Origin: a virus
IMG/VR virus record: IMGVR_UViG_3300037467_000284
Span: 1-64,000 of that record
Strand: one strand, 5' to 3'
Length of the DNA: 64,000 nt
Both the position numbers and the translations under genes were made by a program. The notes beneath the pieces are model-generated. The model did not search any database, was not told the origin of the DNA, and saw only the letters and a list, made by a program, of their open reading frames with translations. Shown piece after piece: positions 2,717 through 23,699 of this stretch. Position 1 is the stretch's first letter; each line of letters begins with the position of its first letter.

Positions 2717-3385
2717 GTGAAAAAGATCATCGGCTACACCCGCGTATCGACCAAAGAGCAGGGCAAGACCCGGAACGGTCTTGAAGCGCAGGCGGAAGCT
2801 ATTCGGCTGTTCTGCCAGTACAACGGTTACGAATTGATCGAGATTGCTGAGGAAGTGCAATCCGGTGCTGACGATGATCGTCCTGTCCTCGCTGCCGTGA
2901 CAAAGCGTGCCAAAATGCTTGGAGCATTTGTGGTCGTGAACAAGCTAGATCGTTTGTCGCGTAGTGCCATCTTCATCCTGAACTACGTTCAGCAAAACTC
3001 AAAGTTCATCGTGACGATGCTTGGCGAGGACGTTGACCCGTTCATGCTGCACATATACGCGGGTTTGGCCGAGAAAGAGCGGCTGATGATTTCCGACCGG
3101 ACCCGCGCTGGTCTTCAGGCCAAGAAAGCCCGTGGCGAGGCTCTAGGGGCGTCCAAAGACGTTCTTGCGAGGGCTACGACCAACTCGCACATCACGATCA
3201 AGGCCAACGCTGACGCTTTCGCTGAACGCCTGAAGCCGATGATTAGCCGGATGCTCGCAGCCGGGATGTCGTATCGGGCCATCGCAGAAGAATTAAACAG
3301 CACTGGGACCAAGACAGTCCGGGGCGGCAACTGGCACGCCAGTTCCGTGAGCAATCTCGTTGAACGTTTGGCTACGGAGGCTTAA
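2717..3385 (+). CDS. serine recombinase (resolvase/invertase family)
   Basis: GTG start after GGAGG. The N-terminus MKKIIGYTRVSTKEQ is the catalytic-serine motif of resolvases. The C-terminus has an HTH-like segment, GMSYRAIAEELN. Confidence 0.8.
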   Translation: MKKIIGYTRVSTKEQGKTRNGLEAQAEAIRLFCQYNGYELIEIAEEVQSGADDDRPVLAAVTKRAKMLGAFVVVNKLDRLSRSAIFILNYVQQNSKFIVTMLGEDVDPFMLHIYAGLAEKERLMISDRTRAGLQAKKARGEALGASKDVLARATTNSHITIKANADAFAERLKPMISRMLAAGMSYRAIAEELNSTGTKTVRGGNWHASSVSNLVERLATEA

Positions 3386-3616
3386 ATGTGGTTTGGAACA
3401 TATTGCCTTGACCTATACTGCGACAATAGCGGTCCCGCAAGGGATGGGGCGACAATGGAGAACTATGACGGCATCCATGCCTTCCAAGAGTTCCCAAAGC
3501 AATACACGGGGGAGCACGGGTCTGCTTGCCGTGCTCAGGCCCGTAAGGACGGGTGGATCATACGTGGCGACGGTTCGGCTATCTGTCCTAAGTGCAGCGG
3601 CAAAACACGGAAGTAA
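3386..3616 (+). CDS. hypothetical protein with C-terminal zinc-ribbon-like motif
   Basis: 76 aa with its ATG directly after the recombinase stop. The protein ends in ...CPKCSGKTRK. Confidence 0.5.
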   Translation: MWFGTYCLDLYCDNSGPARDGATMENYDGIHAFQEFPKQYTGEHGSACRAQARKDGWIIRGDGSAICPKCSGKTRK

Positions 3617-3662
3617 AGTTCGCCGGGAGTGTCCCGGCTCTTTAACCAAAAGGAGAAGAAAA

Positions 3663-4214
3663 ATGAGTGAAATTGACATGATCATCATCGCAGGCGCGGC
3701 AGGTTTCGCGTTGGCTGCACACGCGGGCCAGAAACGCAAATATACTGGCGAGGACTATTACCATCACCCGAAGCGTGTGTGCGAGACTCTTGAGGCTCAC
3801 GGTCACAAAGATGTCGAAACTCTGGTTGCGGGCCTCCTACACGATGTCGTAGAGGACACGCACGTTACGCAAGAACAGATAATCGAGTATTTCGGCAACG
3901 ATGTTGCGGTTCTCGTGGGCTGGTTGACGAAGACTGGATGGGACGCACCGGCTCCTGCTCGTGCAGAGCGCAAAGCGTTCGAAGTGGCACGCCTGAAGGA
4001 TGCACCGTCCAAGGTAAAGACGATCAAGCTGGCGGATCGGTTGGATAACCTGCCGTCCGTGATCGAGCACGATCCGAAATTCGCTCCCGTCATCGTTGCG
4101 GAGACGCGTGAGCTGCTGGACGGAGCCCTCGTCGGCGGTTGCCCGAAGCTCTGGGCGAAGGTAGACGCGATTGTACGCGAATTTCAATCGAAACAGCTTG
4201 ACAAGGTAGCGTAA
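3663..4214 (+). CDS. RelA/SpoT-type HD-domain small alarmone hydrolase ((p)ppGpp/(p)ppApp hydrolase-like)
   Basis: ATG at 3663 after AAGGAG. HAGQKRKYTGEDYYHHP...AGLLHDVVEDT matches the SpoT/Mesh1 hydrolase HD signature. The 183-aa single-domain protein has no synthetase part. Confidence 0.75.
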   Translation: MSEIDMIIIAGAAGFALAAHAGQKRKYTGEDYYHHPKRVCETLEAHGHKDVETLVAGLLHDVVEDTHVTQEQIIEYFGNDVAVLVGWLTKTGWDAPAPARAERKAFEVARLKDAPSKVKTIKLADRLDNLPSVIEHDPKFAPVIVAETRELLDGALVGGCPKLWAKVDAIVREFQSKQLDKVA

Positions 4215-4227
4215 GTAGTACTACAAT
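4198..4227 (+). promoter_or_regulatory. sigma70-type promoter
   Basis: TTGACA (4198-4203), 18 nt, TACAAT (4222-4227), inside the 3' end of the HD gene and 30 nt before the rtcB start. Confidence 0.6.
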
Positions 4228-4256
4228 CCTACCTGTCAACTAACTAAGGAGAACAT

Positions 4257-5504
4257 ATGCAAGAACGTACCACTGCGAAGATGGTTATCCCTTCGGAAAA
4301 CGGCTCCCGTCCCATCAAGGTTTGGACGACCGATGTCGAAGACGAAGCCATGACGCAACTCAAGAACCTCTCCCGCCTGCCCTTCATTGCGAAGGAAGGT
4401 GTAGCCTGTATGCCGGATGTCCACGCGGGCAAGGGTAGCACCGTAGGAACCGTTATCGCCACGGATAAGGCGATCATCCCGGCTGCGGTAGGTGTGGACA
4501 TTGGTTGCGGCATGGTGGCTACCCGCCTGTCGCTGAAGGCGCACCAGTTGCCGGATTCCCTAGCACGGATTCGTTCGGAAATCGAACGTGTCGTACCGAT
4601 GGGTACTGGCGGCAACCACACTGCCAAGACCGGCCTGATGAACGAGAACGGCTCTCGTATGGGTCCGTACGGATGGCTGGTCCACTCGCTGCGTAACAAC
4701 GATGCGGTGTCGAAAGTCTTCGGTGGGGACGCTGGTAAAGCTGGCGAAAAGGCGTGGAGCCAAGTCGGTACTCTGGGATCGGGGAACCACTTCATCGAAA
4801 TCTGTATCGACCAGAACGACGATGTGTGGGTAATGCTGCACTCCGGTTCCCGTGGCATCGGCAACATGATCGGTCAGTACTACATCGACAAGGGTAAGGA
4901 ACTGATGGAGCAGTTTCACATTACGCTACCTGATGGCGACCTCGCCTACCTGCCGCAAGGGACCGACCTGTTCGAAGACTACGTAGCTGCCGTCCAGTGG
5001 GCGCAGGACTACGCGATGGAAAATCGCAAGTGGATGCTGAAAGCAGTGCTCGATGTGCTTCGCCGTGAGATTCCGGTAACGTTCGGTATCACGGAAGAGG
5101 CAATCAACTGCCACCACAACTACGTAGTACAGGAGAACCATTTTGGAAAGAACCTGTGGATCACTCGCAAAGGCGCTATCCGTGCCCGTGAAGGCGATCT
5201 GGGCATCATTCCGGGCTCGATGGGAGCAAAGAGCTACATCGTACGCGGGAAAGGCAACAAAGAGTCCTACTGCTCGTGCTCGCACGGGGCGGGGCGTAAG
5301 ATGTCACGGTCGAAGGCCCGTCAGATGTTCACTGTCGCTGACCTGAAGGCACAAACGCAGGGCGTAGAGTGCCGTAAGGACGATGCAGTACTTGACGAGA
5401 TTCCGGGCTCGTACAAAGACATTGACGTAGTGATGGAAAACCAGAAGTCTTTGGTTGAAGTTGTACATACGCTACGCGCTGTTCTTTGCTGCAAGGGTGC
5501 GTGA
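4257..5504 (+). CDS. rtcB: RtcB-family RNA 3'-phosphate ligase
   Basis: 415 aa with an AAGGAG RBS. GSGNHFIE, HSGSRGIGN, CHHNY and CSHGAGR motifs are characteristic of RtcB. Confidence 0.9.
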   Translation: MQERTTAKMVIPSENGSRPIKVWTTDVEDEAMTQLKNLSRLPFIAKEGVACMPDVHAGKGSTVGTVIATDKAIIPAAVGVDIGCGMVATRLSLKAHQLPDSLARIRSEIERVVPMGTGGNHTAKTGLMNENGSRMGPYGWLVHSLRNNDAVSKVFGGDAGKAGEKAWSQVGTLGSGNHFIEICIDQNDDVWVMLHSGSRGIGNMIGQYYIDKGKELMEQFHITLPDGDLAYLPQGTDLFEDYVAAVQWAQDYAMENRKWMLKAVLDVLRREIPVTFGITEEAINCHHNYVVQENHFGKNLWITRKGAIRAREGDLGIIPGSMGAKSYIVRGKGNKESYCSCSHGAGRKMSRSKARQMFTVADLKAQTQGVECRKDDAVLDEIPGSYKDIDVVMENQKSLVEVVHTLRAVLCCKGA

Positions 5505-7778: not shown

Positions 7779-7963
7779 TTCAGCCCCTATAAATCAAGAT
7801 AACCCCTTGATTTTAAAAATAAAATTTAAAATTTGCCTATGGCAGCACATTATATCGCCAATGGCGAAATATATCTTGCACCAAAACAGCAGAGTTTGAA
7901 CCGAATTGTCTATGAGAAAGGGCATCCAGGAATGCTCATCTTGAGCAAGAGCGAGGGGTGACT

Positions 7964-8125
7964 TTAACTCCGGAGAATTGCCGCCTTAGCTGCGGTTTCA
8001 AGAGCCACTTTAAGCTCTTTAAGGTCAATAGGATCAGCGTTAAGGAACTCTTCAACGTAAGCCTTGAGAACCTCGACGGAATCTAGATGATCTTCGACAT
8101 TAAAGGGGAGCGTTTCGCCTGCCAT
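7964..8125 (-). CDS. small protein resembling the N-terminal part of COG3636/HigA-like antidote proteins (no HTH part)
   Basis: ATG at 8125 preceded by AGGAGG. FNVEDHLDSVEVLKAYVEEFLNADP...ALETAAKA resembles the F..a.yLDs.E.i.aYL motif of that family. Only 53 aa. The similarity is from memory. Confidence 0.45.
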   Translation of the reverse strand: MAGETLPFNVEDHLDSVEVLKAYVEEFLNADPIDLKELKVALETAAKAAILRS

Positions 8126-8569
8126 GTTGCCTCCTAAAATAAAAATTTTGAGAATGGGCAGCATACCACATTTCCTCGGGTAGCGAGAGGGTTGCTTAAC
8201 GGCCCTTACCTGCCTGAAACATGCCTCTCTGGCTTGCCAGAAATATCCATAGGGCCATTTCTCAGGAGAGATGAGGGAACATACCGGGACAGGCCCAGTG
8301 GGCTCAGAAGGCCGCTATTCGGCTCCTATAGCCTGTGTACAAATTGCTGACGTTCGTTACCATTGTGTACAGCGTCTATACCAGTGTGGATAACATAAGC
8401 TAGACCATAGGCCGAGAAAGCCTCTAGGACCGCATAGGAGAGGCTACAAGGCCCGAACATTGACCTGTCTATGGTTTGACTAGGCCATAGGCCAGAATGA
8501 TCCTGTAGAGCCTCTGGCTCTGGCTGAGCTAGGACACGGACAAATGTCCGTACAGTGCAACAAATGTTT

Positions 8570-8601
8570 GTTTCACGTGAAACACAAGCGCCACAGGCGC
8601 A
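8570..8601 (+). repeat. 32-bp perfect direct repeat, copy 1
   Basis: GTTTCACGTGAAACACAAGCGCCACAGGCGCA. It contains the 14-bp palindrome GTTTCACGTGAAAC and the hairpin GCGCC-ACA-GGCGC. Confidence 0.9.
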
Positions 8602-8689
8602 GAATTCCTGCTAAGAAAGAAGAGTTAAAGAACGTTCGACGGCTTAACCAGCCGCCCCCGATCTGTTTGTAGACACATAACTTTTGAAC

Positions 8690-8721
8690 GTTTCACGTGA
8701 AACACAAGCGCCACAGGCGCA
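8690..8721 (+). repeat. 32-bp perfect direct repeat, copy 2
   Basis: Identical to 8570-8601 and exactly 120 bp downstream. Confidence 0.9.
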
Positions 8722-8954
8722 TTAACATCAAGGGCCATAGGCCCATAACAATCCGCCCGCCTCTGTTATCAGACATAGGGATATGACCATACTGAGCCAT
8801 TGGCTCAGGTGATCAGGTGATATAACGCCATAGGCGATGCCATATAACGTGCCATAGGCACAAAGCCGTTTCAGCCGTTGGCTATATAGCCTTATTCTTT
8901 GCCATAGGCAACTAACATTGTCAATTTTAGAATGTTTCCTCTAGTGCAAAATGG

Positions 8955-8983
8955 TTGACTTTTGGCAAGGTGTATGCTACCCT
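8955..8983 (+). promoter_or_regulatory. candidate sigma70-type promoter inside the hairpin tract
   Basis: TTGACT (8955-8960), 17 nt, TACCCT (8978-8983), the same -10 as promoter 32390-32418. It would transcribe hairpins 8993-9195 toward the hairpin at 9500-9517. Confidence 0.35.
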
Positions 8984-9490
8984 AACCCACGAGTGCCATA
9001 GCACGAGTGGTAATAGAAAGCAAGTACTATTTAGTTATATAGTGCCGTAGGCACAAAACATATGTTATGAGCCTATGGCTCTATACGTATGGTCCCGTAG
9101 GGACAGAGGAACGACTCCCGTATAGGGGAGTCGATAGGGGGAGAGGGATTTGATAGGCCATAGGCCAAGTAGATAGTGTTATGTGCCTATGGCACTAGAG
9201 GGACTGGAGAGACGTTCCACCGGGCAGGATGGCGGGACAATCCTAAAGGGATAATCATGCATTCAGTATGCACGTTTGAATAGAGGCGTTTAGAGCCGTT
9301 TATTTTGATGAGTTGGTATGAGGGTAGCCTAGCACTTGCGTTCGTGCCTTTGTAGCGCCTCTGGTGCGGTCTGAGAGGCATTGGCACATATTCCGCTAGC
9401 CCTGCTATCCAAGGGTATGCCAAAGGACAGGCTATTCCCTGTGTTACTTGAGGACTACTTTAGTAATACTTGAGTTGTCAAGTATTGCAT

Positions 9491-9520
9491 AAATAAAAAG
9501 GCCCGAATTAACGGGCCTTT
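9491..9520 (-). terminator. rho-independent terminator ending the AT-rich leftward operon
   Basis: GGCCCG-AATTAA-CGGGCC (9500-9517). On the minus strand it is followed by TTTTTATTTAT. It lies just after the stop of gene 9523-9756. Confidence 0.75.
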
Positions 9521-9522
9521 GC

Positions 9523-9756
9523 CTATCCACCTTTCGACCATCTGCCGCGTGATTTGTCGTCATACGCTGCTATCAATTCCCTCATTTCCCATATTCCCCA
9601 TGCTTGAGGGAATTCTATCAATTCGACAATTGCGCCTGTAGGGCTGAAAGAGGCGAATTGATAAACTGGCGTGTCCCTGTTGTCGATAGCGTAAATCTGT
9701 GCGCTCACAGCTCCGCTACCACTGTAATTCATCAGCCGTTGCACCAAGCGAGACAT
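9523..9756 (-). CDS. hypothetical protein
   Basis: 77 aa with an AGGAA RBS. It is the last gene of the leftward operon. Confidence 0.6.
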   Translation of the reverse strand: MSRLVQRLMNYSGSGAVSAQIYAIDNRDTPVYQFASFSPTGAIVELIEFPQAWGIWEMRELIAAYDDKSRGRWSKGG

Positions 9757-9771
9757 TTCATTTTCCTTTCG

Positions 9772-9927
9772 CTATGCATCAGGGTGTTTTGAATTCAGAA
9801 CGTCAAGAGCCAGCCGCATAAACCGCGCAGCATGTTCTACTGTCATGCCATTATGCTCTGCCCATTTCTCGATGGTGAGGTAGTTATTGACGTAATCGAG
9901 ATACGCCTTAATCAGAATGTCGCGCAT
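9772..9927 (-). CDS. hypothetical protein (51 aa)
   Basis: Found manually in the gap between track ORFs. Product MRDILIKAYLDYVNNYLTIEKWAEHNGMTVEHAARFMRLALDVLNSKHPDA. Tightly spaced with its neighbours. Confidence 0.45.
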   Translation of the reverse strand: MRDILIKAYLDYVNNYLTIEKWAEHNGMTVEHAARFMRLALDVLNSKHPDA

Positions 9928-9932
9928 GATGT

Positions 9933-10175
9933 TTAATCCTCTAACTCGTATTCATAAAGTGAAAACGGCAATGCTTCGCCATTGTCAGCCCGTTTCAAAT
10001 CGTACAGAGGCATATTGCCCATAGTTTCATCGTAGCCGGGATGAAAACCGTTCGGCTTACCTTTGGCGAAGAATTCAGCCGCTGGCATGTATTTGGTGGC
10101 TTTGGACGTTACGATTAATTCGACATCACGCCACTGTTCGCCGTAGTTTTGTATTGCGTCTTCTGTCATTTTCAT
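9933..10175 (-). CDS. hypothetical protein
   Basis: 80 aa. Its start overlaps the stop of the upstream gene (ATGA). Confidence 0.6.
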   Translation of the reverse strand: MKMTEDAIQNYGEQWRDVELIVTSKATKYMPAAEFFAKGKPNGFHPGYDETMGNMPLYDLKRADNGEALPFSLYEYELED

Positions 10176-10375
10176 TACTTGCCCCTTTCGGCTAGTTTAT
10201 TTGCGATGGTTTGTAATGCAATATGGTCCGTGTCGTTTTGATTCCCGTTCCTGTAGCGCCTCAAACAAGCTTTGTCATCGATTGACAGGGACGCCAGCTT
10301 TTCAGCATCGAGAATGGCACTCATATAAAACGCTTTGCCGAGTGCGATGTTTTCGAGTTTCTTTGAGAGTTTCAT
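10175..10375 (-). CDS. hypothetical protein
   Basis: 66 aa with a GGGGCAATAATG-type RBS context. Confidence 0.55.
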   Translation of the reverse strand: MKLSKKLENIALGKAFYMSAILDAEKLASLSIDDKACLRRYRNGNQNDTDHIALQTIANKLAERGK

Positions 10376-10390
10376 TATTGCCCCAGTCTT

Positions 10391-10561
10391 TTAGCGGCTG
10401 GCCGGAATTCCGGCTTTACGTGCTTTAGTAATTGCGATCTGTGCGGCACGGTAGGATTTAAAGCGCTTGCCGTGGAAATGCCCGGTGTCGTCCGTTACAT
10501 AGCATTCCGACTTGTTGCAATAGCCGTTGATATACATGCCGTTATAGTAATGCGTGAACAT
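10391..10561 (-). CDS. hypothetical protein (56 aa)
   Basis: Found manually. AAGGAA RBS. Product MFTHYYNGMYINGYCNKSECYVTDDTGHFHGKRFKSYRAAQIAITKARKAGIPASR. Confidence 0.45.
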   Translation of the reverse strand: MFTHYYNGMYINGYCNKSECYVTDDTGHFHGKRFKSYRAAQIAITKARKAGIPASR

Positions 10562-10597
10562 AGTTTGTTCCTTTGGTCAGTGGTTAGAACATCTGTT

Positions 10598-10620
10598 AAT
10601 GCCCTACTTGGTAAGGCATT
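10598..10620 (-). repeat. intercistronic stem-loop family, copy 1
   Basis: Plus strand AATGCC-11 nt-GGCATT followed by GGCTG. It lies between the stop at 10631 and the start at 10561. Confidence 0.7.
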
Positions 10621-10630
10621 GGCTGAGGCT

Positions 10631-10969
10631 CTATTTACGCGGGTACAGGTCGAATGATCCTAGCAATTTATCCTCTCGTCCAAGCTTTGCGATTTCTTCG
10701 CATTGCTCGAATGAATACAGGGCGGATTCGTCGCCGTTTGGCGATATAACGCGGAAGTGCTGGCCGACTTCGATAATCTTGTAATCGTCATGGTTGGCGA
10801 ACAAATCCCTGCCAGCATTGATTGCCGCATTGCCTTGATTGCGGTTTTTCAAGTTGAGCATTGCCGTTATGTTGCCGTCGCCATACTCGCCACTTGCATA
10901 AAGCCGGAATGCCTCCCGGCATACGGATTCGCCATACTTGGCAATTGCCCGTTTCGTGTTTTGGTTCAT
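10631..10969 (-). CDS. hypothetical protein
   Basis: 112 aa with an RBS present. Confidence 0.6.
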   Translation of the reverse strand: MNQNTKRAIAKYGESVCREAFRLYASGEYGDGNITAMLNLKNRNQGNAAINAGRDLFANHDDYKIIEVGQHFRVISPNGDESALYSFEQCEEIAKLGREDKLLGSFDLYPRK

Positions 10970-10972
10970 TTC

Positions 10973-11302
10973 TTATTTCCTTTTCTTTTCAAGTAGCATC
11001 GTTGCCCCGAATTTAATTACCGTATCTTCAGGGTTCCATTCGTAATGCGGTTTGCTGATGACACCATTAATCGAGCGCGATTGCGAATAGTAAAGTTGAT
11101 CCGTCTCGGCGTCCAACACTTCCGCATATGTTGCCCCGTATTTGTTGATTTGCAGATTGCGCATGACGTTTAAGCCAGCTTCGAACAAATCACTTCCGTG
11201 ATTCGTTTTGACAATCTCACCGTTAAACACGTAACGAGTTTTAAGCTTGACTGGTGCATCTTTGGACCGACCAGAGTTCATTACGATTTTCTTGACTTGC
11301 AT
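10973..11302 (-). CDS. hypothetical protein
   Basis: 109 aa with an AAGGGGAAA RBS. Confidence 0.6.
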   Translation of the reverse strand: MQVKKIVMNSGRSKDAPVKLKTRYVFNGEIVKTNHGSDLFEAGLNVMRNLQINKYGATYAEVLDAETDQLYYSQSRSINGVISKPHYEWNPEDTVIKFGATMLLEKKRK

Positions 11303-11346
11303 CTATATTTCCCCTTGGATGATTTGAATAACTCGGCTAAGCCGTC

Positions 11347-11374
11347 AATGAGCACTCGTTATTGAATGCTCATT
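11347..11374 (-). repeat. intercistronic stem-loop family, copy 2
   Basis: Plus strand AATGAGCA-12 nt-TGCTCATT followed by AGCTG. It lies between the stop at 11381 and the start at 11302. Confidence 0.7.
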
Positions 11375-11380
11375 AGCTGG

Positions 11381-11758
11381 TTAGCGTTCCCGCGTTTCCC
11401 ACGCATTACGGGCCAATGGCTCGATATTATTGGCTTTGCAGTTTGCGGAATATGTTGCATATTCCAAGTCAACGAAATCGCCAATTGACCGCGTGAATAC
11501 ATTTGTTCGCAGTGCGTGCAAATACGCTGGCAACAACTCTTGTTCAGTTGCCGTGAGAGTCCAAAGCAGTGATAAGGGCGTTGAACCGTTGTGTTTGAAG
11601 AATTGCCACGCAACGTATCCACGCCTAGCGCATTCGTCATAAGCCGTTTCCAAATGCGCTGCATTGTCGGCATTAGGGTTTAGTTCGAGCTGGGCACGTT
11701 CCCCGGTGGCTGCGGTATATTCGCCTTTTGATGAGCGATTGAAGAATTGAGCATACAT
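11381..11758 (-). CDS. hypothetical protein
   Basis: 125 aa with an RBS present. Confidence 0.6.
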   Translation of the reverse strand: MYAQFFNRSSKGEYTAATGERAQLELNPNADNAAHLETAYDECARRGYVAWQFFKHNGSTPLSLLWTLTATEQELLPAYLHALRTNVFTRSIGDFVDLEYATYSANCKANNIEPLARNAWETRER

Positions 11759-11773
11759 TTTGATTTTTCCTTT

Positions 11774-11980
11774 TCAGAGTGGTACATAACGCTTTGCTGC
11801 CCTACGTGCGCCACTATAGCTTTTCCACGTCCTTACGTCGCCTCCTGTGGTGCGCAAATAGCCGTATTGCGTGCCGATGACGATATATTCATATTCATCA
11901 GCTTTAACGCGAAACTTAGCCACAGTGGGCGACTTAGGCTCTCGGCAACGTGAGTCAATACCATTCTCAAAGACAATCAT
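11774..11980 (-). CDS. hypothetical protein
   Basis: 68 aa with a GGAGGAACAA RBS. Confidence 0.55.
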   Translation of the reverse strand: MIVFENGIDSRCREPKSPTVAKFRVKADEYEYIVIGTQYGYLRTTGGDVRTWKSYSGARRAAKRYVPL

Positions 11981-12009
11981 TTGTTCCTCCGTTTAAAAGT
12001 TAATCCGTT

Positions 12010-12035
12010 AATGCCCACCTTTAATAATGGGCATT
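12010..12035 (-). repeat. intercistronic stem-loop family, copy 3
   Basis: Plus strand AATGCCCA-10 nt-TGGGCATT followed by GGCTG. It lies between the stop at 12048 and the start at 11980. Confidence 0.7.
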
Positions 12036-12047
12036 GGCTGATTAGCT

Positions 12048-12542
12048 TCAATTGTTATAGAAGTAATGCCCATTCGATTCGAAAAACGAATGGCTCAAAT
12101 CCCCGTTCCAATAGTGCTCCCAATCGATATAAGCAAACATTGGGTGACTTTCCTCAATCAAGCCAGTCTCTATTGCCCACTCTTCCGCAAAGTCTTTGCC
12201 GGAGTCGTATTTGCCTCTGTAATTGTCGCGTGCTGTTGCGAAATCACATTCACCGCAATTGGCAATATACGCTGCCCACATTTCCCGGTCATCTTCCTCC
12301 AATGCGGCAAGCTCAAAAGCTTTTTCGTTAATCGATGATTCGCTGATCAGAGCGTCCGGAATGTCTTCCCAATCTTGGAACATGAATTCAGGGTCAGATT
12401 CGTCCGCGTGAATTTCACGGCATTTTTCGTAGAATTCGTCTTTATCGTTGAAGTCTTCCAAATCAAGCCACTCACCTTTCAAGCTGCCTGAATTGTATTT
12501 GGCATAAGTGCCAACATAAACACGCATAGTGTCATTCGCCAT
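12048..12542 (-). CDS. ardA: ArdA-family anti-restriction protein
   Basis: 164 aa and very acidic. RVYVGTYAKYNSGSLKGEWLDLEDF... and the C-terminal ...AYIDWEHYWNGDLSHSFFESNGHYF match the ArdA (type I R-M inhibitor, DNA mimic) pattern. Confidence 0.8.
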   Translation of the reverse strand: MANDTMRVYVGTYAKYNSGSLKGEWLDLEDFNDKDEFYEKCREIHADESDPEFMFQDWEDIPDALISESSINEKAFELAALEEDDREMWAAYIANCGECDFATARDNYRGKYDSGKDFAEEWAIETGLIEESHPMFAYIDWEHYWNGDLSHSFFESNGHYFYNN

Positions 12543-12556
12543 TTTAAATCCCCTTG

Positions 12557-12862
12557 TTAGCTGAAGTATTGCCCGATGATGACGGAATCAAACGAGTCAT
12601 CAGCCCATTTCAACAAGATGCCGGAAAATGCGGAATCACTGTAATAGCCGTTCCACCCTTTGAACCATTCCGTTTCTGGACATTGCATAAATTCCCCGAT
12701 GTCGTAAAGCTGGCCCTTGAAACGGAAGAACTGCCGGTTATCGTTTCCGGAATCGATTGCCTGCCAGTTGATGTAATCGAATTCCTTACGTTCTTTTTCG
12801 GTTAGCTGGTATGCGTCAATAACTAGGCGCGGCACATTATTAGTGCGGACAGTGATAGCCAT
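12557..12862 (-). CDS. hypothetical protein
   Basis: 101 aa. Its start overlaps the upstream stop (ATGA-type). Confidence 0.6.
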   Translation of the reverse strand: MAITVRTNNVPRLVIDAYQLTEKERKEFDYINWQAIDSGNDNRQFFRFKGQLYDIGEFMQCPETEWFKGWNGYYSDSAFSGILLKWADDSFDSVIIGQYFS

Positions 12863-13185
12863 TATTGCCCCTTAGTGAATTTAAATTCGTGTTTGATTAC
12901 CTGTTTTATTTCGATGCCGTAATGCGTCAAAAACGCCCCGTATGCACTAGCTAGCTTTTGCCATGCATCCGCATCATCCGGGATACCAAGCAACTCTAAA
13001 CGCTTGTCTATCGCCTTCTCGTAACATCGGGGCATATCTTCAGGATTCGCACCAATATCTGTTTGTTCGCCATTACCAGTGACACGGATAATGTACGAAT
13101 TGGCGTTTTGAGCGTGTTTCTTGAAGTAGATGCCATATGGCGCACCACTGGCACGCAAAAGCTTAACCTGAGTTGTTTTAGTCAT
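12862..13185 (-). CDS. hypothetical protein
   Basis: ATG at 13185 preceded by AAGGA. The longer track ORF to 13290 runs through the intercistronic hairpin. Confidence 0.55.
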   Translation of the reverse strand: MTKTTQVKLLRASGAPYGIYFKKHAQNANSYIIRVTGNGEQTDIGANPEDMPRCYEKAIDKRLELLGIPDDADAWQKLASAYGAFLTHYGIEIKQVIKHEFKFTKGQ

Positions 13186-13214
13186 ACCTGTGCATCCTTC
13201 TAAGTAAATCCGAC

Positions 13215-13237
13215 AATGCCTAGACCAGCTAGGCATT
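13215..13237 (-). repeat. intercistronic stem-loop family, copy 4
   Basis: Plus strand AATGCCTAG-5 nt-CTAGGCATT followed by AGCTG. It lies between the stop at 13244 and the start at 13185. Confidence 0.7.
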
Positions 13238-13243
13238 AGCTGA

Positions 13244-13573
13244 TTAACTCTCAGCGTAGCTCTTAACAGCCCATTCGATATACGGGGCAACCCCTAAGCC
13301 GTGCAAGCCGTATCCGATGGCATCGCCAATGTATGCGATGCATTCGCTTTCGGCGTGACCAAGCCACTTTGAGATGACCACGCCGGTAACGGCTACTATG
13401 GTTCCAGTGGCGAGCCTGTAATAAAGCGGATGATCGTGACCGAACATCAGATTGCACAACGGATGCATGATATTCAGCCTGATCAGGACACGCTTGATAA
13501 CGCCCGGCTTTTTGGCATGGATAGTTGCCAGCTTGTTTTTGCCTTTCAATGGTGCGTTCGTGTGGCGAAACAT
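13244..13573 (-). CDS. hypothetical membrane protein
   Basis: 109 aa with hydrophobic central segments and an RBS present. Confidence 0.55.
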   Translation of the reverse strand: MFRHTNAPLKGKNKLATIHAKKPGVIKRVLIRLNIMHPLCNLMFGHDHPLYYRLATGTIVAVTGVVISKWLGHAESECIAYIGDAIGYGLHGLGVAPYIEWAVKSYAES

Positions 13574-13608
13574 TTTTATTATTCCCCTTGGTAATTTTGG
13601 TTTAGGTT

Positions 13609-14022
13609 TTATACAAAAACTTCGATTGCGGGCACAACATCCTCATGTGCAACAGCTCCGGCCAGAATTGCATCACGTTCGCGTTTCGCAATGAACGCTT
13701 TGCGAGTGATGCCGAGACTTACAGGCACGCTATCAGGACCATATACGGCGATGTTTGCTGGCGCATCCCATTCAAAGCCAACCGTTGCGATATACGGTGC
13801 ATCCGGGTCAACATCGGCTTTTGCGGCAGCGTAGCTATCGTACAAGTCGCCGGGATGGGCATTCAGCGTTCCCGGCTTGCCGGTGCGATGATAATAGCCC
13901 TGCTCGTAAATGTTCATGTAGCTAATGCGCTTTGCTTTAGCTGGAGTGCCAAACACGCGAACGGCAGCGAAGAGGCGCGCGAACAGATTACGGATGATGA
14001 TTGCTTTGATAAAGTTTTTCAT
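13609..14022 (-). CDS. hypothetical protein with N-terminal signal/anchor-like segment
   Basis: 137 aa. The N-terminus MKNFIKAIIIRNLFARLFAAVRVFG is hydrophobic. Confidence 0.55.
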   Translation of the reverse strand: MKNFIKAIIIRNLFARLFAAVRVFGTPAKAKRISYMNIYEQGYYHRTGKPGTLNAHPGDLYDSYAAAKADVDPDAPYIATVGFEWDAPANIAVYGPDSVPVSLGITRKAFIAKRERDAILAGAVAHEDVVPAIEVFV

Positions 14023-14047
14023 TTTTATTCCTCTTGGTATTAGTTAT

Positions 14048-14497
14048 TTATTGGATGAAGGTGTCAATACTGAATTTGCCGCTACCTGAAAAAACGCTAA
14101 CGAATAGCAATGCCATCAAAAGAATCTCAGGCAAGAAAAGCCAATTCGTTGCCCGGTCAAGCGTGTTGAAATTGCTTCGGGCATTTACCTTACGCGGGCC
14201 AGTCGTCACTGTGGCGACTATACAAACGATTATCAGCACGGCAGCGTGGAACGCAGTGAGAAAACCAATTGCATAGGCTAATCCACCGAAGCATTCCCAA
14301 AAAGCTACCCACCAGCAAAAGAAACTCACGAACGGAATTTGACATCCCGTTAAGCTGGCTATCAGGTTTTTATGTCCCTGATTTGTGAACAGCTTATTGA
14401 ATCCGGACATTGCGAAAAATACGCCAACAATAAAACGCGGGATGAAAAGCGCAATGTCATTTGCCGGAATCCCTTGCGTGACAAGCAAAAGCAACAT
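14048..14497 (-). CDS. DoxX-like integral membrane protein
   Basis: ATG at 14497 after GGAGG. It has four hydrophobic helices. IPRFIVGVFFAMSGFNKLF resembles the DoxX N-terminal motif. The family call is from memory. Confidence 0.5.
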   Translation of the reverse strand: MLLLLVTQGIPANDIALFIPRFIVGVFFAMSGFNKLFTNQGHKNLIASLTGCQIPFVSFFCWWVAFWECFGGLAYAIGFLTAFHAAVLIIVCIVATVTTGPRKVNARSNFNTLDRATNWLFLPEILLMALLFVSVFSGSGKFSIDTFIQ

Positions 14498-14501
14498 TTG
14501 T

Positions 14502-15053
14502 CTATGCCTCCATAGGCTCACGGATGAGGCGCAGAACGGCGAATTGCGTCTCAGTGTCGAAACGGGCAATGTATGCCGGTAATTGGGAAACAACCCACTC
14601 CAATTGATTTTCCGGGAATTGCCCGTTATTGCCTTTTGCATACAGGCTTTGCCCAATGGTGTCGGCGTACATGAGCAATGCTTCAAGCGATGTTTGCCCG
14701 AAAAATTCTTGCACTTCCCGCACGTGGATTGCACCAATGGCGATTTCCTCAGCCGTGCTAAACCCTTTGTTCAGGACGCAGTGCAAAACATCGTGCCAGA
14801 AACGAAATGCCCAGTTTGCACCAGCATTCGTGTAAATCGTGTTTTCACTTGCACCACGCCACACAGGCAGCGCGTGCCCGGTGGATTTGGACGCGTTCCA
14901 AGCCGTTTTAAGCTCGTTGAAATCATCCGGAGCTGCCGCTACATCAATGTAGCCAAAGCCGATTTTCTTTGCGATTTCGTCAGCTTTGCGGATGGCGAAT
15001 TGAGACAGGTTAATGCGTGCGGCTTCGATGTTTCGGATATGGGCAAAAGTCAT
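14502..15053 (-). CDS. hypothetical protein
   Basis: 183 aa with an RBS present. Confidence 0.6.
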   Translation of the reverse strand: MTFAHIRNIEAARINLSQFAIRKADEIAKKIGFGYIDVAAAPDDFNELKTAWNASKSTGHALPVWRGASENTIYTNAGANWAFRFWHDVLHCVLNKGFSTAEEIAIGAIHVREVQEFFGQTSLEALLMYADTIGQSLYAKGNNGQFPENQLEWVVSQLPAYIARFDTETQFAVLRLIREPMEA

Positions 15054-15112
15054 TTTTATTGTTCCAATCTTGTTTAGGTTTTAGTCTCATCAGCGCACGC
15101 ATTACGTGCGGA

Positions 15113-15134
15113 CAAAAGACCGGCTAGGCCGGTC
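15113..15134 (-). terminator. internal terminator/attenuator hairpin in the leftward operon
   Basis: GACCGGC-TAG-GCCGGTC. On the minus strand it is followed by TTTTG. A second hairpin, CGCACG-CATTA-CGTGCG, lies just downstream. Confidence 0.5.
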
Positions 15135-15149
15135 CATTGTTTCGACTTG

Positions 15150-15404
15150 TTACGGATTGCGGAAACCCTCATGGTTTTCCTTTTCCATTTCTTCCAGCGT
15201 TTGAATCTTTGGCGCGAATTCCACTTTTTCACCGCACAATGAATAATGCGTCACGCTGATTTCGAATCCTTCAGACTTTGGAAACCGTTTAACGAAGTCT
15301 TCATAAACGGTTTTCATTGCATCACGCGTGGCTTGATTGAAACTACGCTCATGCGTGGCAAAGTAGTGTTTTCCGTGTTTTGAGACGTTGATTTCGTAGT
15401 ACAT
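15150..15404 (-). CDS. hypothetical protein
   Basis: ATG at 15404 preceded by AAGGGGAAA. The longer track form has no RBS. Confidence 0.55.
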   Translation of the reverse strand: MYYEINVSKHGKHYFATHERSFNQATRDAMKTVYEDFVKRFPKSEGFEISVTHYSLCGEKVEFAPKIQTLEEMEKENHEGFRNP

Positions 15405-15478
15405 GATTATTTCCCCTTGCGAATGATTTTGGAAAGAGCGGCACGGAAAGCGGCACGCTGTTGTTTTACAGACATTTA

Positions 15479-15673
15479 TTAATCCCCTTTTTGATATAAA
15501 ACCCAAATGCCAAACATTACCATCAGCAAAAAGATAATGTCAGTTGCGGCGCAGATGTACAGCAAATCACTTTGCACTTTGCCGTAGAAACCTATGCCGA
15601 TTGCCCCGTTAAAAACAATTCCAACAATCGAAAACAAAATCGTCAGAATTGCCAAGAAATTTTTTACTTTCAT
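15479..15673 (-). CDS. small membrane protein
   Basis: 64 aa with two hydrophobic helices. Confidence 0.55.
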   Translation of the reverse strand: MKVKNFLAILTILFSIVGIVFNGAIGIGFYGKVQSDLLYICAATDIIFLLMVMFGIWVLYQKGD

Positions 15674-15785
15674 TTAGTCCCCTTAGAAATAGGCTTTGAT
15701 CATCACGTAGATATCGATTCCAGCAAAAAGAACCGCAATGCCGAGCATGTAATACCCGGCTTTGCGCTCTTCCCTGTCCCTGATT

Positions 15786-16490
15786 TCACGCTTGAGATAT
15801 TCGCTTTGCATTTGCGGCTTCATAGATAAGATGAATATCGGAATTAAAATCTACGAAAGCATCAGTGTTGAACCGGGAACCGAATTTTCCGTCAAGCATA
15901 GAGATAATGCCGGTGTCGCCATCGTCATCGTACCTTGGATATGGCGTATCTAACACTTCAGCCGAGAAATCAGAAATCTTGCGAAAGATAATCGGGTTTC
16001 CGATGAATTGAAAAACGCGGTCAACAGCCAGCAAGCCGAAAACAGTTCGCTTAGGGCCAATGCACTGTTCAGCATTCGGCAAAGCTACATCAGTAAGCCA
16101 CGAACTATAGGCCGCCTGAGCAACACGGTTATTGTCATAGTCCGTGATGAAATAGCCGTCAATGTCCGCTTGAATCATCAGTTCATTATTGATGATGTAA
16201 TAGTCGAGAAATTCCGCATTCATCTTTTCGATGATGGCATACAAAGCTTCGTCGCACAGGCCCAATACCTTGATTACAGCATCGGTAGTGGGCATGATGC
16301 CCGCTGGAAGGGGCACGACATCGTAAACATCAGCTGTTGCCTTGTGATATTTACGGCACGAATCGTTACACTGTTTGGCCGATTCCATTGCTTCAGCCAT
16401 CGTCGCGTAAGAGTCATAGCAAGTGCCTCCTTCAACTTCGCATAGTTCGCCAGTTTCGATTACGCGAACGGCATAGAAAGTATGTTTCAT
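15786..16490 (-). CDS. hypothetical protein
   Basis: 234 aa, the largest gene of the AT-rich operon. RBS present. Confidence 0.65.
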   Translation of the reverse strand: MKHTFYAVRVIETGELCEVEGGTCYDSYATMAEAMESAKQCNDSCRKYHKATADVYDVVPLPAGIMPTTDAVIKVLGLCDEALYAIIEKMNAEFLDYYIINNELMIQADIDGYFITDYDNNRVAQAAYSSWLTDVALPNAEQCIGPKRTVFGLLAVDRVFQFIGNPIIFRKISDFSAEVLDTPYPRYDDDGDTGIISMLDGKFGSRFNTDAFVDFNSDIHLIYEAANAKRISQA

Positions 16491-16532
16491 TATTATTTCC
16501 CTTGTTAGGTGAATTAAAACATCGCATGTAAT

Positions 16533-16556
16533 AGCGCATTACCGAAGCAATACGCT
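16533..16556 (-). repeat. intercistronic stem-loop family, copy 5 (divergent)
   Basis: AGCGCATT-8 nt-AATACGCT. The single C/A mismatch on the plus strand is a G.U pair on the coding (minus) strand. Confidence 0.5.
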
Positions 16557-16572
16557 ATAGCCTGAAATGTCT

Positions 16573-16839
16573 TTATTGCGGATCGTACTCTTCCAACATT
16601 TGTGGTTCCCCGTGCGCAGTTGGAAACGCGATTTGCCCGAACTCATTGACATAAGAGTCTTTGTGTACGGCATATAAGCGCCACGGACCGGAGATTTTGC
16701 CACCAGCGTTTTTAACTTGCCGTTTTGCCTCTTGCACCGTTGCCCCCTTGCCCCAGTGATTCGGAACAGTGATTAAGAAAATAAAATCAGGTGTCAGAAT
16801 GTTGTGCTTATTGTTCGGAATCGTTTTTGGTTTAATCAT
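16573..16839 (-). CDS. hypothetical protein (first gene of the AT-rich leftward operon)
   Basis: 88 aa with a GGAGGGTAACAAAATG RBS. Confidence 0.6.
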   Translation of the reverse strand: MIKPKTIPNNKHNILTPDFIFLITVPNHWGKGATVQEAKRQVKNAGGKISGPWRLYAVHKDSYVNEFGQIAFPTAHGEPQMLEEYDPQ

Positions 16840-17326
16840 TTTGTTACCCTCCTAAGAAATCACTAAAGTGAACACAAAATCATGCCTCCTGAACATGCCT
16901 AGATATATGTTCGGTTTAGCTCAGTCGGCATTGTTTTGCGCCTTATGGGCACATTCTTTTTTCCGTCATTCTTGACGTTTAATCACTCCCCGTCTCGCGT
17001 ACCATCCCGGTAGGCTATCGGATCAAAGCTTTCTTACTCGTATGCCGTGCCAAGAGGATTTAGGACCGAAGTCATGTCTACACTTGAACACTCAACTTAT
17101 CCGCTACACGCTGCCATCCCGGCAGTGCCACACTACTAAACTACTAAAACATACAACAGACCACAGAATACCAAACGGCTTAGGTATGTGCAATACCTAA
17201 ATCAAAATATTTCCACACGAATCGCAAAGCTGTTGCCTAACGACAAATTGCGCACGCGTAACACGCGAATAGCACGGGCCATGTAGCCGAGTCAAGCAAT
17301 TTCGGACGTAGTGTTGCTTTCCTATC

Positions 17327-18110
17327 TTATCCACAGGTTAGCAGCGTATCTAGCACTACTTATCCACATGCTCTAAAACGCGTTAAACGGGCCTGTAAGG
17401 CGTCCGGGAAGTCGGATGAACCCGTTTTCATCCGGTGTCCTGCGTGCCGTGGCAGTGCCTCAAAACGCGTTTAAACGGCATTGTCGAAAAGCAATTTTCT
17501 GTGGATAAGCTGTGGATTACACGTTTTTAACACTTTCAACATGAGTTTTTACATGGCATTTCGTCAGTCATCAAGCCGAACTCTGCCCGGACGGTAGGAC
17601 GCCACAACGGAAAACATCAGTAAAATCAATCACTTGAGTCTTATATAAGAGTTGGAAAATTCATCTATATGAATCGGTGGCACTCTTATATAAGACCTAA
17701 GACCACTCTTATATAAGACTAGGGAAAATGTAAAACACGGATTCATATAGATGACTAGATGAGTTAGTGGTATGGCTTTTGCCTTAGCAAGTAGCGTGCC
17801 AGCTACCACTACTTTGCCTGCTAGCTAGCCTGTCTTTGCTTTGTAGGTATGGTTCATAACCTTTTGTCATACCTTGTTTCCTGCTACGCTGGAACATCTG
17901 GGAATTTATACAGGATGGAACGAACGAAACATTAGGTTCTTACAAGCAATGTAATCACGGCTAGCTATTGCTATGCGATAGCTTATAAGCCGTGCTTATG
18001 CCTAGCTTTAGCTTGTGGATAACATGCATTGCTAGCAACTTTCCTAAAGGTTGTCCACAGGGACAGGGCTGTTTGCGCCTTTTGGCAGGGTTTTCCACAG
18101 CTTGTTCACA
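17327..18110. promoter_or_regulatory. DnaA-box cluster (oriC-like or DnaA-titrating region)
   Basis: Perfect TTATCCACA at 17327-17335 and 17360-17368. Perfect TGTGGATAA at 17500-17508 and 18014-18022. One-mismatch boxes at 17511-17519, 18051-18059 and 18091-18099. A two-mismatch box at 18102-18110. Confidence 0.7.
17638..17754. repeat. iteron-like 15-bp repeats plus a flanking 15-bp inverted repeat, AT-rich
   Basis: ACTCTTATATAAGAC at 17682-17696 and 17705-17719, with an inverted copy at 17638-17652. TTCATCTATATGAATC (17660-17675) pairs with GATTCATATAGATGA (17740-17754). Confidence 0.8.
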
Positions 18111-18270
18111 GATTTGCTGCTTTCAAGCAACGCCTTGCAATATTGGCAAGGAGTGGGCAGGATGTTAGCGCTAGCAGGAAAAGCAGCTCAGGGAAGGCTA
18201 GCAGCTAGAGACGCTTGGAAGGCTCCTAAACCTTCTGACTAAGATGGGGCGAGATAGGCTGGAACCACGC

Positions 18271-18341
18271 TAAGAAAGAAGTAGAAAATTCCCCACTCCC
18301 TGTCGAAATTCTGACTTCTGATTTCCAGATAGGATTTCGAG
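18271..18341 (+). repeat. long direct repeat, copy 1
   Basis: 18271-18309 is identical to 23629-23667 (39 of 39). The next 32 nt match 19 of 32 without gaps by manual alignment. Confidence 0.9.
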
Positions 18342-18349
18342 ACAAGCCC

Positions 18350-18379
18350 AAAAAGAAAAGCCCCGCACGAAGGCGGGGC
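18350..18379 (-). terminator. rho-independent terminator of the 22924-18407 leftward block
   Basis: GCCCCGC-ACGAAG-GCGGGGC. On the minus strand it is followed by TTTTCTTTTT. It lies 28 nt after the stop of gene 18407-18784. Confidence 0.75.
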
Positions 18380-23628: not shown

Positions 23629-23699
23629 TAAGAAAGAAGTAGAAAATTCCCCACTCCCTGTCGAAATCTCAGCACATGATTTCTAAGTAGGATTCCGGG
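23629..23699 (+). repeat. long direct repeat, copy 2
   Basis: See 18271-18341. It lies 5358 bp from copy 1 in the same orientation. Confidence 0.9.

Follow-up and report, generated by a model that had tools for sequence, protein, structure and literature searches.

The stretch analysed here, called the window, is the first 64,000 nt of IMG/VR virus record IMGVR_UViG_3300037467_000284, whose source is a 91,808-bp Joint Genome Institute (JGI) contig. Between positions 9523 and 16839 it carries a block of 20 packed leftward genes, including one for the anti-restriction protein ArdA, which lies between two non-coding tracts. The listing of open reading frames (ORFs) and independent gene calls agree on this array, and the total becomes 21 if a doubtful 46-amino-acid (aa) ORF is counted. 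The preliminary description had reported one leftward array of small genes, richer in AT than its surroundings and bounded by two structured non-coding tracts, and each of these observations was confirmed. The features of the block are given below in the order of the genes; L004, L005 and L013 are related viral contigs, and pI is the isoelectric point.

Gene 1, 16573-16839, minus strand: 88 aa, basic; no homologue detected in the relatives
Gene 2, 15786-16490, minus strand: 234 aa, very acidic (charge -17, pI 4.4), two modules
Doubtful ORF, 15683-15823, minus strand: 46 aa, one hydrophobic helix; overlaps gene 2 by 38 nt and is omitted by the independent caller
Gene 3, 15479-15673, minus strand: 64-aa membrane protein with two hydrophobic helices
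Gene 4, 15150-15404, minus strand: 84 aa; phrog_18878 (unknown function); homologue in L013
Gene 5, 14502-15053, minus strand: 183 aa, all-helical; present in L004, L005 and L013
Gene 6, 14048-14497, minus strand: 149 aa, DoxX-family membrane protein
Gene 7, 13609-14022, minus strand: 137 aa; no homologue in the relatives or among PDB sequences
Gene 8, 13244-13573, minus strand: 109 aa, basic; in L004, L005 and L013 at 47-53%
Gene 9, 12862-13185, minus strand: 107 aa (corrected start); in L004 and L005 at 62-69%
Gene 10, 12557-12862, minus strand: 101 aa, beta-rich, phrog_1845; directly upstream of ArdA
Gene 11, 12048-12542, minus strand: ArdA, 164 aa, charge -28, pI 4.1
Gene 12, 11774-11980, minus strand: 68 aa, basic
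Gene 13, 11381-11758, minus strand: 125 aa; homologue in L013 at 46%
Gene 14, 10973-11302, minus strand: 109 aa; 82% identity with its L004 and L005 homologues
Gene 15, 10631-10969, minus strand: 112 aa; no homologue detected in the relatives
Gene 16, 10391-10561, minus strand: 56 aa, basic
Gene 17, 10175-10375, minus strand: 66 aa, basic
Gene 18, 9933-10175, minus strand: 80 aa, acidic (charge -7); weak match to phrog_34111
Gene 19, 9772-9927, minus strand: 51 aa; phrog_26669; 69% identity in L004
Gene 20, 9523-9756, minus strand: 77 aa; last gene of the block
Terminator, 9497-9520, minus strand: intrinsic, AAAGGCCCGTTAATTCGGGCCTTT then TTATTTAT; L004 has a terminator at the equivalent position, 12725-12741

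The products range from 51 to 234 aa, and 15 of the 21 ORFs encode 50-130 aa. Spacing between neighbours runs from the 38-nt overlap (-38) to a maximum gap of 96 nt (+96), and a Shine-Dalgarno-like purine-rich motif precedes the ATG of most genes. The start of the ORF listed as 12862-13290 was moved to 13185 (107 aa) according to a Logan gene call and the length of its homologues. No strong terminator was found inside the block. Because an intrinsic terminator (9520->9497, minus strand, 9-bp stem and T-run) directly follows the last gene, the preceding leftward operon is closed by its own terminator (18380->18359) and 1.5 kb of non-coding DNA lies ahead of gene 1, these signals indicate that the block is a separate transcription unit.

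The guanine-cytosine (GC) content of the block was 46.2%, compared with a mean of 52.2% (standard deviation 0.6, minimum 50.9) in 156 other 7.3-kb windows, and GC at third codon positions (GC3) was 0.52 against 0.63 elsewhere. The neighbouring leftward operon (18.3-23.9 kb) had the GC content of the backbone; the AT-richness is real and specific to the block together with the tracts on either side. A search of the block against Rfam gave no match, nor did a nucleotide search against phage and plasmid collections, and its only other public copies were two short Logan contigs, both 100% identical.

ArdA, DoxX and the uncharacterised proteins

At the level of sequence, the identity of ArdA is genuine. 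Residues 8-145 cover positions 1-137 of the 155 in profile PF07275 (E=1.9e-25, 90.7 bits against a cutoff of 27), phrog_2059 'anti-restriction protein' was matched at E=2e-21, and residues 4-159 aligned with residues 2-159 of chain A of 2W82, the 165-aa Orf18 of Tn916 (E=2.4e-4). A dimer-interface Tyr-Ile and a C-terminal 'VF' motif have been listed as essential in ArdA (PMC2731889). Here the dimer-interface Y-I-D is kept, 'AYIDWEHY' aligning with 'NYIDYQAY' of Orf18, and the C-terminal hydrophobic-Phe motif is kept as Y160-F161, equivalent to I160-F161 of Orf18. The protein therefore shares with the family of Orf18 a full-length match, both motifs and an extreme acidity (net charge -28 and pI 4.14 over 164 aa), although its identity is low to Orf18 and 44-48% to enterobacterial plasmid ArdAs. 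We believe that it is a putative DNA-mimic inhibitor of type I restriction-modification enzymes. Its translation-initiation region (12540-12568, CTAACAAGGGGAtttaaaATG) is nearly the same as that of the 234-aa acidic protein (16488-16516, CTAACAAGGGAAataataATG), and this likeness may represent a shared expression signal of the two most acidic products of the block.

The DoxX assignment of gene 6 also held, with a match to PF07681 above its cutoff (E=5e-12, 46.6 bits against 23.6) and at least three hydrophobic segments in the protein. Since its score against the NCBIfam HvfX model was 34.8, under the cutoff of 80, we claim membership of the DoxX superfamily only. The protein had been called unusual for a phage, and indeed it is rare in phages, with one homologue in 50,697 records. 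With DoxX included, the block encodes three or four small membrane proteins.

For the other products, Pfam, PHROGs and NCBIfam gave no function, only a few PHROGs of unknown function, and no defence-system model of PADLOC was matched in the block. PDB sequence searches with four of the unknown proteins returned nothing, or spurious matches to designed proteins. Profile searches and structure prediction, which the preliminary description had recommended for each small protein, brought two confident models without a PDB match and functions for ArdA and DoxX alone.

The first of these models is the 183-aa protein of gene 5 (14502-15053; AlphaFold pLDDT, the predicted local distance difference test, 91). 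Among its 28 homologues the residues H87, D88, H91, E103, D131 and Q135 are invariant, with the motif FRFWHDxxH; these residues look catalytic and suggest a metal-dependent enzyme. A PDB fold search with the model gave nothing significant, and in a viral library the fold was matched only by uncharacterised proteins, nearly all from phages and mostly from podoviruses (shl2, Percy, Scott, LKA1, AS12). In Bordetella phage BB8, the family is represented by gene 3, counted from the left end, which lies upstream of the T7-type RNA polymerase. The second model is the beta-rich 101-aa protein of gene 10 (12557-12862; pLDDT 93), for which the PDB fold search was likewise without a significant result. 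Its family is found in 81-90-kb phages and ~108-112-kb non-mobilizable Escherichia plasmids, not in conjugative plasmids. The two modules of the 234-aa protein, residues 1-132 and residues 147-225, occur elsewhere as separate small proteins, which are uncharacterised. The possibility that this acidic protein is a diverged ArdA was rejected, as it is not ArdA-like, and its matches to leucine-rich repeat (LRR) and GAF repeat proteins were treated as spurious.

The two flanking non-coding tracts

The tracts that border the block are marked by DnaA boxes on the upstream side and by a palindrome array on the downstream side.

16850-18358, no strand: upstream non-coding tract with DnaA boxes, 16-nt sites and a conserved motif; regulatory, possibly an origin or anchor
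17165-17193, minus strand: candidate sigma70-type promoter, TTGCAC, 17 nt, TGgTATTCT, with the -35 inside the conserved palindrome GGTATTGCNCATACC
18271-18309 and 23629-23667, minus strand: 39-nt perfect direct repeat, core of a ~80-nt element heading each leftward transcription unit
7834-9367, no strand: downstream non-coding tract with ~16 short GC-rich palindromes, a 32-nt repeat, a DnaA box and a small ORF

Perfect DnaA boxes (TTATCCACA) occur six times in the window against 0.37 expected, and four of them lie within 17327-18022. Together with three one-mismatch boxes they make up the upstream cluster, which contains a tandem pair at 17500/17511 in 11-bp phasing, the spacing of cooperative DnaA oligomers at oriC. 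Clusters were also found at 4246-5144 in L004, 4828-5609 in L005 and 6403-6491 in L013, with three to seven perfect boxes and with tandem boxes at the same phasing; tandem boxes with 2-bp gaps are present in all four genomes, and L004 and L005 have triplets. Such a cluster could serve as an origin, as a regulated early promoter region or as an element like the injection stop signal (iss) of phage T5.

The same tract carries three copies of a 16-nt site (17636-17651, 17681-17696 and 17704-17719), whose arms are 90-100% complementary and close to the palindrome ACTCTTATATAAGAGT. L004 and L005 have three copies as well; two of the sites are spaced by 23 nt in the window, as are all three in L004. 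A further motif with the consensus CCGTTTAAACGCGTTTTAAGG is conserved in L004 and L005 and has two close variants in the window, and CTTATATAAG palindromes occur in the tracts of L004 and L005. The elements of the tract stand at the equivalent position in L004 and L005 and partly in L013. We infer that the block is regulated through the three palindrome-like 16-nt sites. The candidate at 17193 is the only promoter that keeps its position in L004 and L005, where its counterparts (at 5356 and 5819, respectively) read TTGCGC-17-TAGAAT.

The window, L004 and L005 each hold the ~80-nt element twice. In the window, each copy is situated upstream of a leftward gene set, and one comes immediately after the terminator at 18380-18359. 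We considered a structured RNA and rejected it, because covariation was absent and the folding energy was weak; with its GAAAT/ATTTC half-sites, the element is probably a protein-binding or promoter element.

The palindromes of the downstream tract have the form GCC-NNN-GGC and are mostly GCCTATGGC, with 12 of the 16 on the minus strand. Allowing one mismatch, GCCTATGGC occurs 25 times in the window against 11.8 expected, and 16 of these lie within 7835-9193. The tract also includes one DnaA box, at 8385, and, inside the array, a perfect 32-nt direct repeat, GTTTCACGTGAAACACAAGCGCCACAGGCGCA, at 8570-8601 and 8690-8721, 120 nt apart; each copy combines a GTTTCACGTGAAAC palindrome with a GCGCC-nnn-GGCGC hairpin. 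Equivalent arrays were located at 12833-14158 in L004, 13147-14297 in L005 and 13081-13946 in L013, with 11-14 GCCNNNGGC palindromes. A 66-aa acidic ORF (7964-8164, minus strand) with a strong AGGAGG ribosome-binding site lies within the tract, downstream of the terminator of the block, and had no family match.

The locus in related phages

The genes of the window include RtcB, an HD protein, DNA and RNA ligases, a primase-helicase, UvrD, DNA polymerase A (Pol A), phosphoribosyl pyrophosphate (PRPP) synthetase, NAMPT and lysis enzymes, and a ribonucleotide reductase-like protein with a weak Pfam match. Integrase, partition and Rep functions were not found among the ORFs scanned. The gene content marks the window as part of a virulent-type phage, known only from metagenomes. 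It has no close cultured relative: its primase-helicase is 55% identical to that of ~99-kb Pseudomonas syringae phages, and its Pol A is 47-51% identical to those of Aeromonas phages and the PAK_P1/KPP10 group. By its Pol A, the phage is a distant relative of the PAK_P1/KPP10-type myoviruses. We also considered a phage-plasmid and set it aside, the sole candidate for lysogeny or plasmid maintenance among 51 scanned ORFs being a small serine resolvase.

Relatives were reached through ArdA, which led to three viral contigs of 84-91 kb, and through the 183-aa protein, which led to a fourth; a backbone scan of viral contigs with a 245-aa neighbour protein gave nothing. At least four further large contigs of ~90-kb relatives were seen in addition. 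L004, L005 and L013 (~91 kb, metagenomic) are true relatives; their backbone proteins share 40-55% identity with those of the window. In all three the order is the preceding operon and its terminator, the DnaA-box tract, the small-gene block and the palindrome array. The convergent RtcB and HD genes past the array are annotated in L013 and inferred from ORF position in L004. The small-gene blocks of the relatives lie 5-8 points of GC under their flanks.

The genes inside these blocks are largely different. About 6-8 genes are shared. Two of them, encoding the 183-aa protein and, at 13244, a 109-aa protein, were the only ones detected in all three relatives; ArdA and the genes at 12862 and 10973 are found in L004 and L005, and those at 9772, 11381 and 15150 in one relative each. 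The ~12 remaining genes have no counterpart in L004, L005 or L013. Gene 14 (10973-11302) is more conserved in L004/L005 than the backbone proteins. Even L004 and L005, in which one backbone protein is 89% identical, differ in their blocks.

The remaining contig, L003 (IMGVR_UViG_3300046522_000173, 84 kb), which was among those reached through ArdA, is at best a very distant relative, with one weak 27% match besides its ArdA. That ArdA is 73% identical to the one of the window and sits in a run of small ORFs, more than 50 on the same strand over ~20 kb. Because this identity exceeds the 51-55% found for the backbone of the true relatives, it argues for cassette exchange, and this lineage of ArdA appears to move between the small-gene arrays of phages.

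Horizontal acquisition of the block as a unit, which had been proposed from its composition, is not borne out: L004, L005 and L013 share the locus, the tracts and the low GC and carry different genes. Since the flanks and the low GC are the same in the relatives and the gene sets largely different, the comparison indicates that the locus is ancestral and hypervariable, with cassette-wise gene turnover, and that low GC is a lasting trait of the locus.

Possible role of the block

Studies have shown that small-gene arrays of this kind can be early regions of phages. For example, RNA-seq on PAK_P3 and PAK_P4 identified an array of small, unique ORFs as the early region, read by the hijacked host polymerase, and the early proteins are the least conserved of these phages (PMC5563952). 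Like the phage studied here, PAK_P3 and PAK_P4 (Nankokuvirus and Pakpunavirus, Pseudomonas myoviruses) have a related backbone, with Pol A at ~47%, and an array of small ORFs. In PAK_P3, ~32 small genes form a unidirectional array between two gene-free segments. PhageTerm predicts direct terminal repeat (DTR) termini of PAK_P3 at ~63 kb, and Hi-C at 3 min placed the two gene-free segments at the tip of a loop, which sets part of the early region apart (PMC13510664). The 3'-side segment coincides with the predicted termini and is rich in short GC palindromes, and by its resemblance to that segment the palindrome array of the window may mark a genome end or packaging site. No homology was found between the early proteins of PAK_P3 and the block, and ArdA was not found in the 44-78 kb stretch of PAK_P3 that was compared.

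A second analogue is the class I region of T7 with Ocr (gene 0.3), in which small genes read by the host polymerase include a DNA-mimic protein against type I enzymes. In several T7-like phages ArdA takes the place of Ocr at the left end; it lies 1.4-2.4 kb from that end in 3MF5, Pasto and phTUNSm, and the 183-aa family is also a left-end gene. Compared with T7, the phage here is much larger, and the block contains no phage RNA polymerase or kinase.

The third is the first-step-transfer (FST) region of T5, which holds ~10 kb of small, poorly conserved ORFs and untranslated repeats of 1.2-1.7 kb that are better conserved than the ORFs, rich in palindromes and furnished with DnaA boxes paired 3 bp apart (bioRxiv 10.1101/866236). 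The likeness extends to ~7-10 kb of small ORFs, conserved untranslated repeats, closely spaced tandem DnaA boxes and a link with insensitivity to restriction. However, the gap between boxes is 2 bp here and 3 bp in T5, the T5 region lies within a 10-kb terminal repeat, and T5 is unrelated to this phage. Searches for A1, A2, dmp or other FST proteins by tblastn in both directions gave nothing better than E~0.01. Because no early-protein homologue was found here, we regard the likenesses to T5 and PAK_P3 as functional analogies.

In this study, we believe it probable that the block serves a virulent phage of ~92 kb as a hypervariable operon of early accessory genes, with host take-over and counter-defence as its likely job. 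The suggestion that it is a pre-early or early phage region fits by analogy with the T7-like phages, BB8 and PAK_P3/PAK_P4, and the same analogies lead us to infer early transcription by the host polymerase. Host sigma70 RNA polymerase would start in the 1.5-kb tract (16.85-18.36 kb), probably near 17.19 kb, and proteins binding the conserved palindromes and the DnaA boxes would control this promoter. The transcript would run leftward through the 20 genes and stop at the predicted terminator at 9520-9497. ArdA would be made early, and as an acidic DNA-mimic dimer would sequester type I enzymes before the unmodified genome is cut. The other ~19 small proteins would be interchangeable cassettes, each directed at a host or defence target; they would include the putative metalloenzyme, the beta-rich 101-aa protein, the acidic two-module protein and three or four membrane proteins. 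While the turnover of genes is seen in the relatives, gene-by-gene swapping with the early regions of other phages would be its mechanism and would keep the locus AT-richer.

Several points weigh against this interpretation. A known anti-defence function is present in only 1 of the 20 genes, and ArdA is absent from the relative L013. Restriction-type palindromes are depleted genome-wide, with no extra depletion in the block. A simple consensus promoter scan of the upstream tract found no promoter, and the candidate at 17193 is a moderate-scoring prediction. PAK_P3 has neither the DnaA-box cluster nor the GC contrast, so that analogy is partial.

The block might instead be a generic accessory ('moron' or hyperplastic) region without a tie to entry or early timing, in which ArdA is a passenger among mixed genes, for example for superinfection exclusion by membrane proteins or niche-specific functions. 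We consider this rather unlikely. The small membrane proteins, among them the phage-rare DoxX, the lack of detectable relatives for most block genes, the absence of any extra palindrome depletion and the dispensability of ArdA in L013 would all suit such a region. On the other hand, ArdA is useful only when made before restriction acts, two block families are found in known early regions of T7-like phages, the analogous array of PAK_P3/PAK_P4 is experimentally early, and a complex and conserved regulatory tract precedes the block, which forms one transcription unit.

In a T5-like first-step-transfer module, the block would enter first, next to or inside a terminal repeat, and the DnaA tract would act as an injection stop signal or loop anchor, keeping the genome at the membrane or looped until pre-early proteins, including ArdA, disarm the host. 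The organisation of the T5 region described above, the two conserved untranslated tracts of ~1.5 kb, the tandem DnaA boxes of all four genomes and the position of the PAK_P3 segment at its predicted termini and loop tip speak for it. However, no FST protein has a homologue here, the block is unidirectional while the pre-early genes of T5 run in both directions from a central promoter region, the contig ends of L004 and L005 lie ~19 kb from the block (though these ends may be arbitrary), and the DnaA-based injection-stop model is itself a hypothesis in T5. We therefore hold this alternative to be improbable. It is similarly doubtful that the block and its two tracts are a first-entry module evolved independently of T5. 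In that case a pre-early cassette array near a terminus would lie between a tract binding DnaA oligomers and a palindrome array, and the tracts would pause entry or loop out the early region, a loop of this kind being seen by Hi-C in PAK_P3, until host defences had been neutralised by ArdA and other early proteins. A virulent phage not belonging to the T5 family would then have recruited host DnaA for a structural or timing role, and both the putative metalloenzyme of 183 aa and the beta protein of 101 aa would be novel effectors of counter-defence or take-over.

The block had also been likened to a plasmid leading region. Studies have shown that leading-region islands adjoin the origin of transfer (oriT), have their genes on the T-strand with Frpo/ssi single-strand promoters, and are rich in genes for single-stranded DNA-binding protein (SSB), PsiB, methyltransferases and toxin-antitoxin systems (Samuel et al. 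2024, PMC11541004). ArdA, one-strand genes, small uncharacterised genes around a known anti-defence gene and the logic of expressing counter-defence first are found here as well, and this part of the comparison stands. Other parts do not: SSB, PsiA/PsiB, orphan methyltransferases and toxin-antitoxin proteins were absent among the block proteins in Pfam, PHROGs and NCBIfam, and no relaxase or type IV secretion system (T4SS) was found among 30 non-block ORFs scanned against Pfam, which are phage genes of replication, nucleotide metabolism and lysis, oriT itself not being searched for. In addition, DNA enters double-stranded here, and the neighbouring gene families are phage-specific. As far as the gene families tell, the resemblance is superficial, one of logic and not of descent.

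Capture of a plasmid or integrative and conjugative element (ICE) leading-region island as a unit is consequently very improbable and largely refuted: ArdA is overwhelmingly a gene of conjugative plasmids (4,105 of 4,994 plasmid records), and the genes are unidirectional with GC under the backbone, but the relatives share locus, flanks and low GC with different gene sets, the 101-aa and 183-aa families are phage families and the populated families other than ArdA are phage-restricted, no nucleotide match to any plasmid was found, and the closest ArdAs are in viral contigs (70-73% identity against 44-48% for the best plasmid ArdA).

As the probable early operon of a virulent phage, the block itself is what specialists would expect, a sensible but unsurprising place for new anti-defence proteins; the DnaA-box and palindrome tracts are more unusual. 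The ~19 uncharacterised early-type proteins beside a bona fide ArdA are reasonable candidates for screens of anti-defence or host-takeover activity. Among them, the 183-aa and 101-aa proteins belong to widespread phage families with confident models and no PDB match, and the enzyme-like 183-aa family stands at the very first-entering end of T7-like phages. The tracts allow tests in a second system of the unproven injection-stop model of T5 and the unexplained loop anchors of PAK_P3. The comparison with the relatives also brings out a ~91-kb phage lineage that had not been described before.

Some observations elsewhere in the window deserve mention. A small serine recombinase (Resolvase and helix-turn-helix domains; 2717-3385, plus strand) lies beside the HD/RtcB genes and is conserved in L013 (18901-19593). 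It is unexpected in a virulent-type phage; it could act as a multimer resolvase or DNA invertase, or hint at a plasmid-like state. The HD protein and RtcB (3360-5504, plus strand), whose genes converge on the palindrome array, and an RNA ligase (26831-27997, plus strand; PHA02142 OB-fold and RNA_ligase) look like a tRNA/RNA repair set of the kind used by phages against anticodon nucleases, which would be a second counter-defence function.

GATC is depleted ~3-fold over ~9000-31000, a region that takes in the two leftward operons as well as the beginning of the rightward replication module; the block has 8 sites against 28 expected. The depletion was also seen in L004 and L005 and not in L013, and we did not use it as evidence of first entry because it is regional (~9-31 kb) and absent in L013. 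CCWGG is nearly absent from the whole 64 kb (2 sites), and this scarcity suggests Dcm/EcoRII-type pressure and an enterobacterial-like host.

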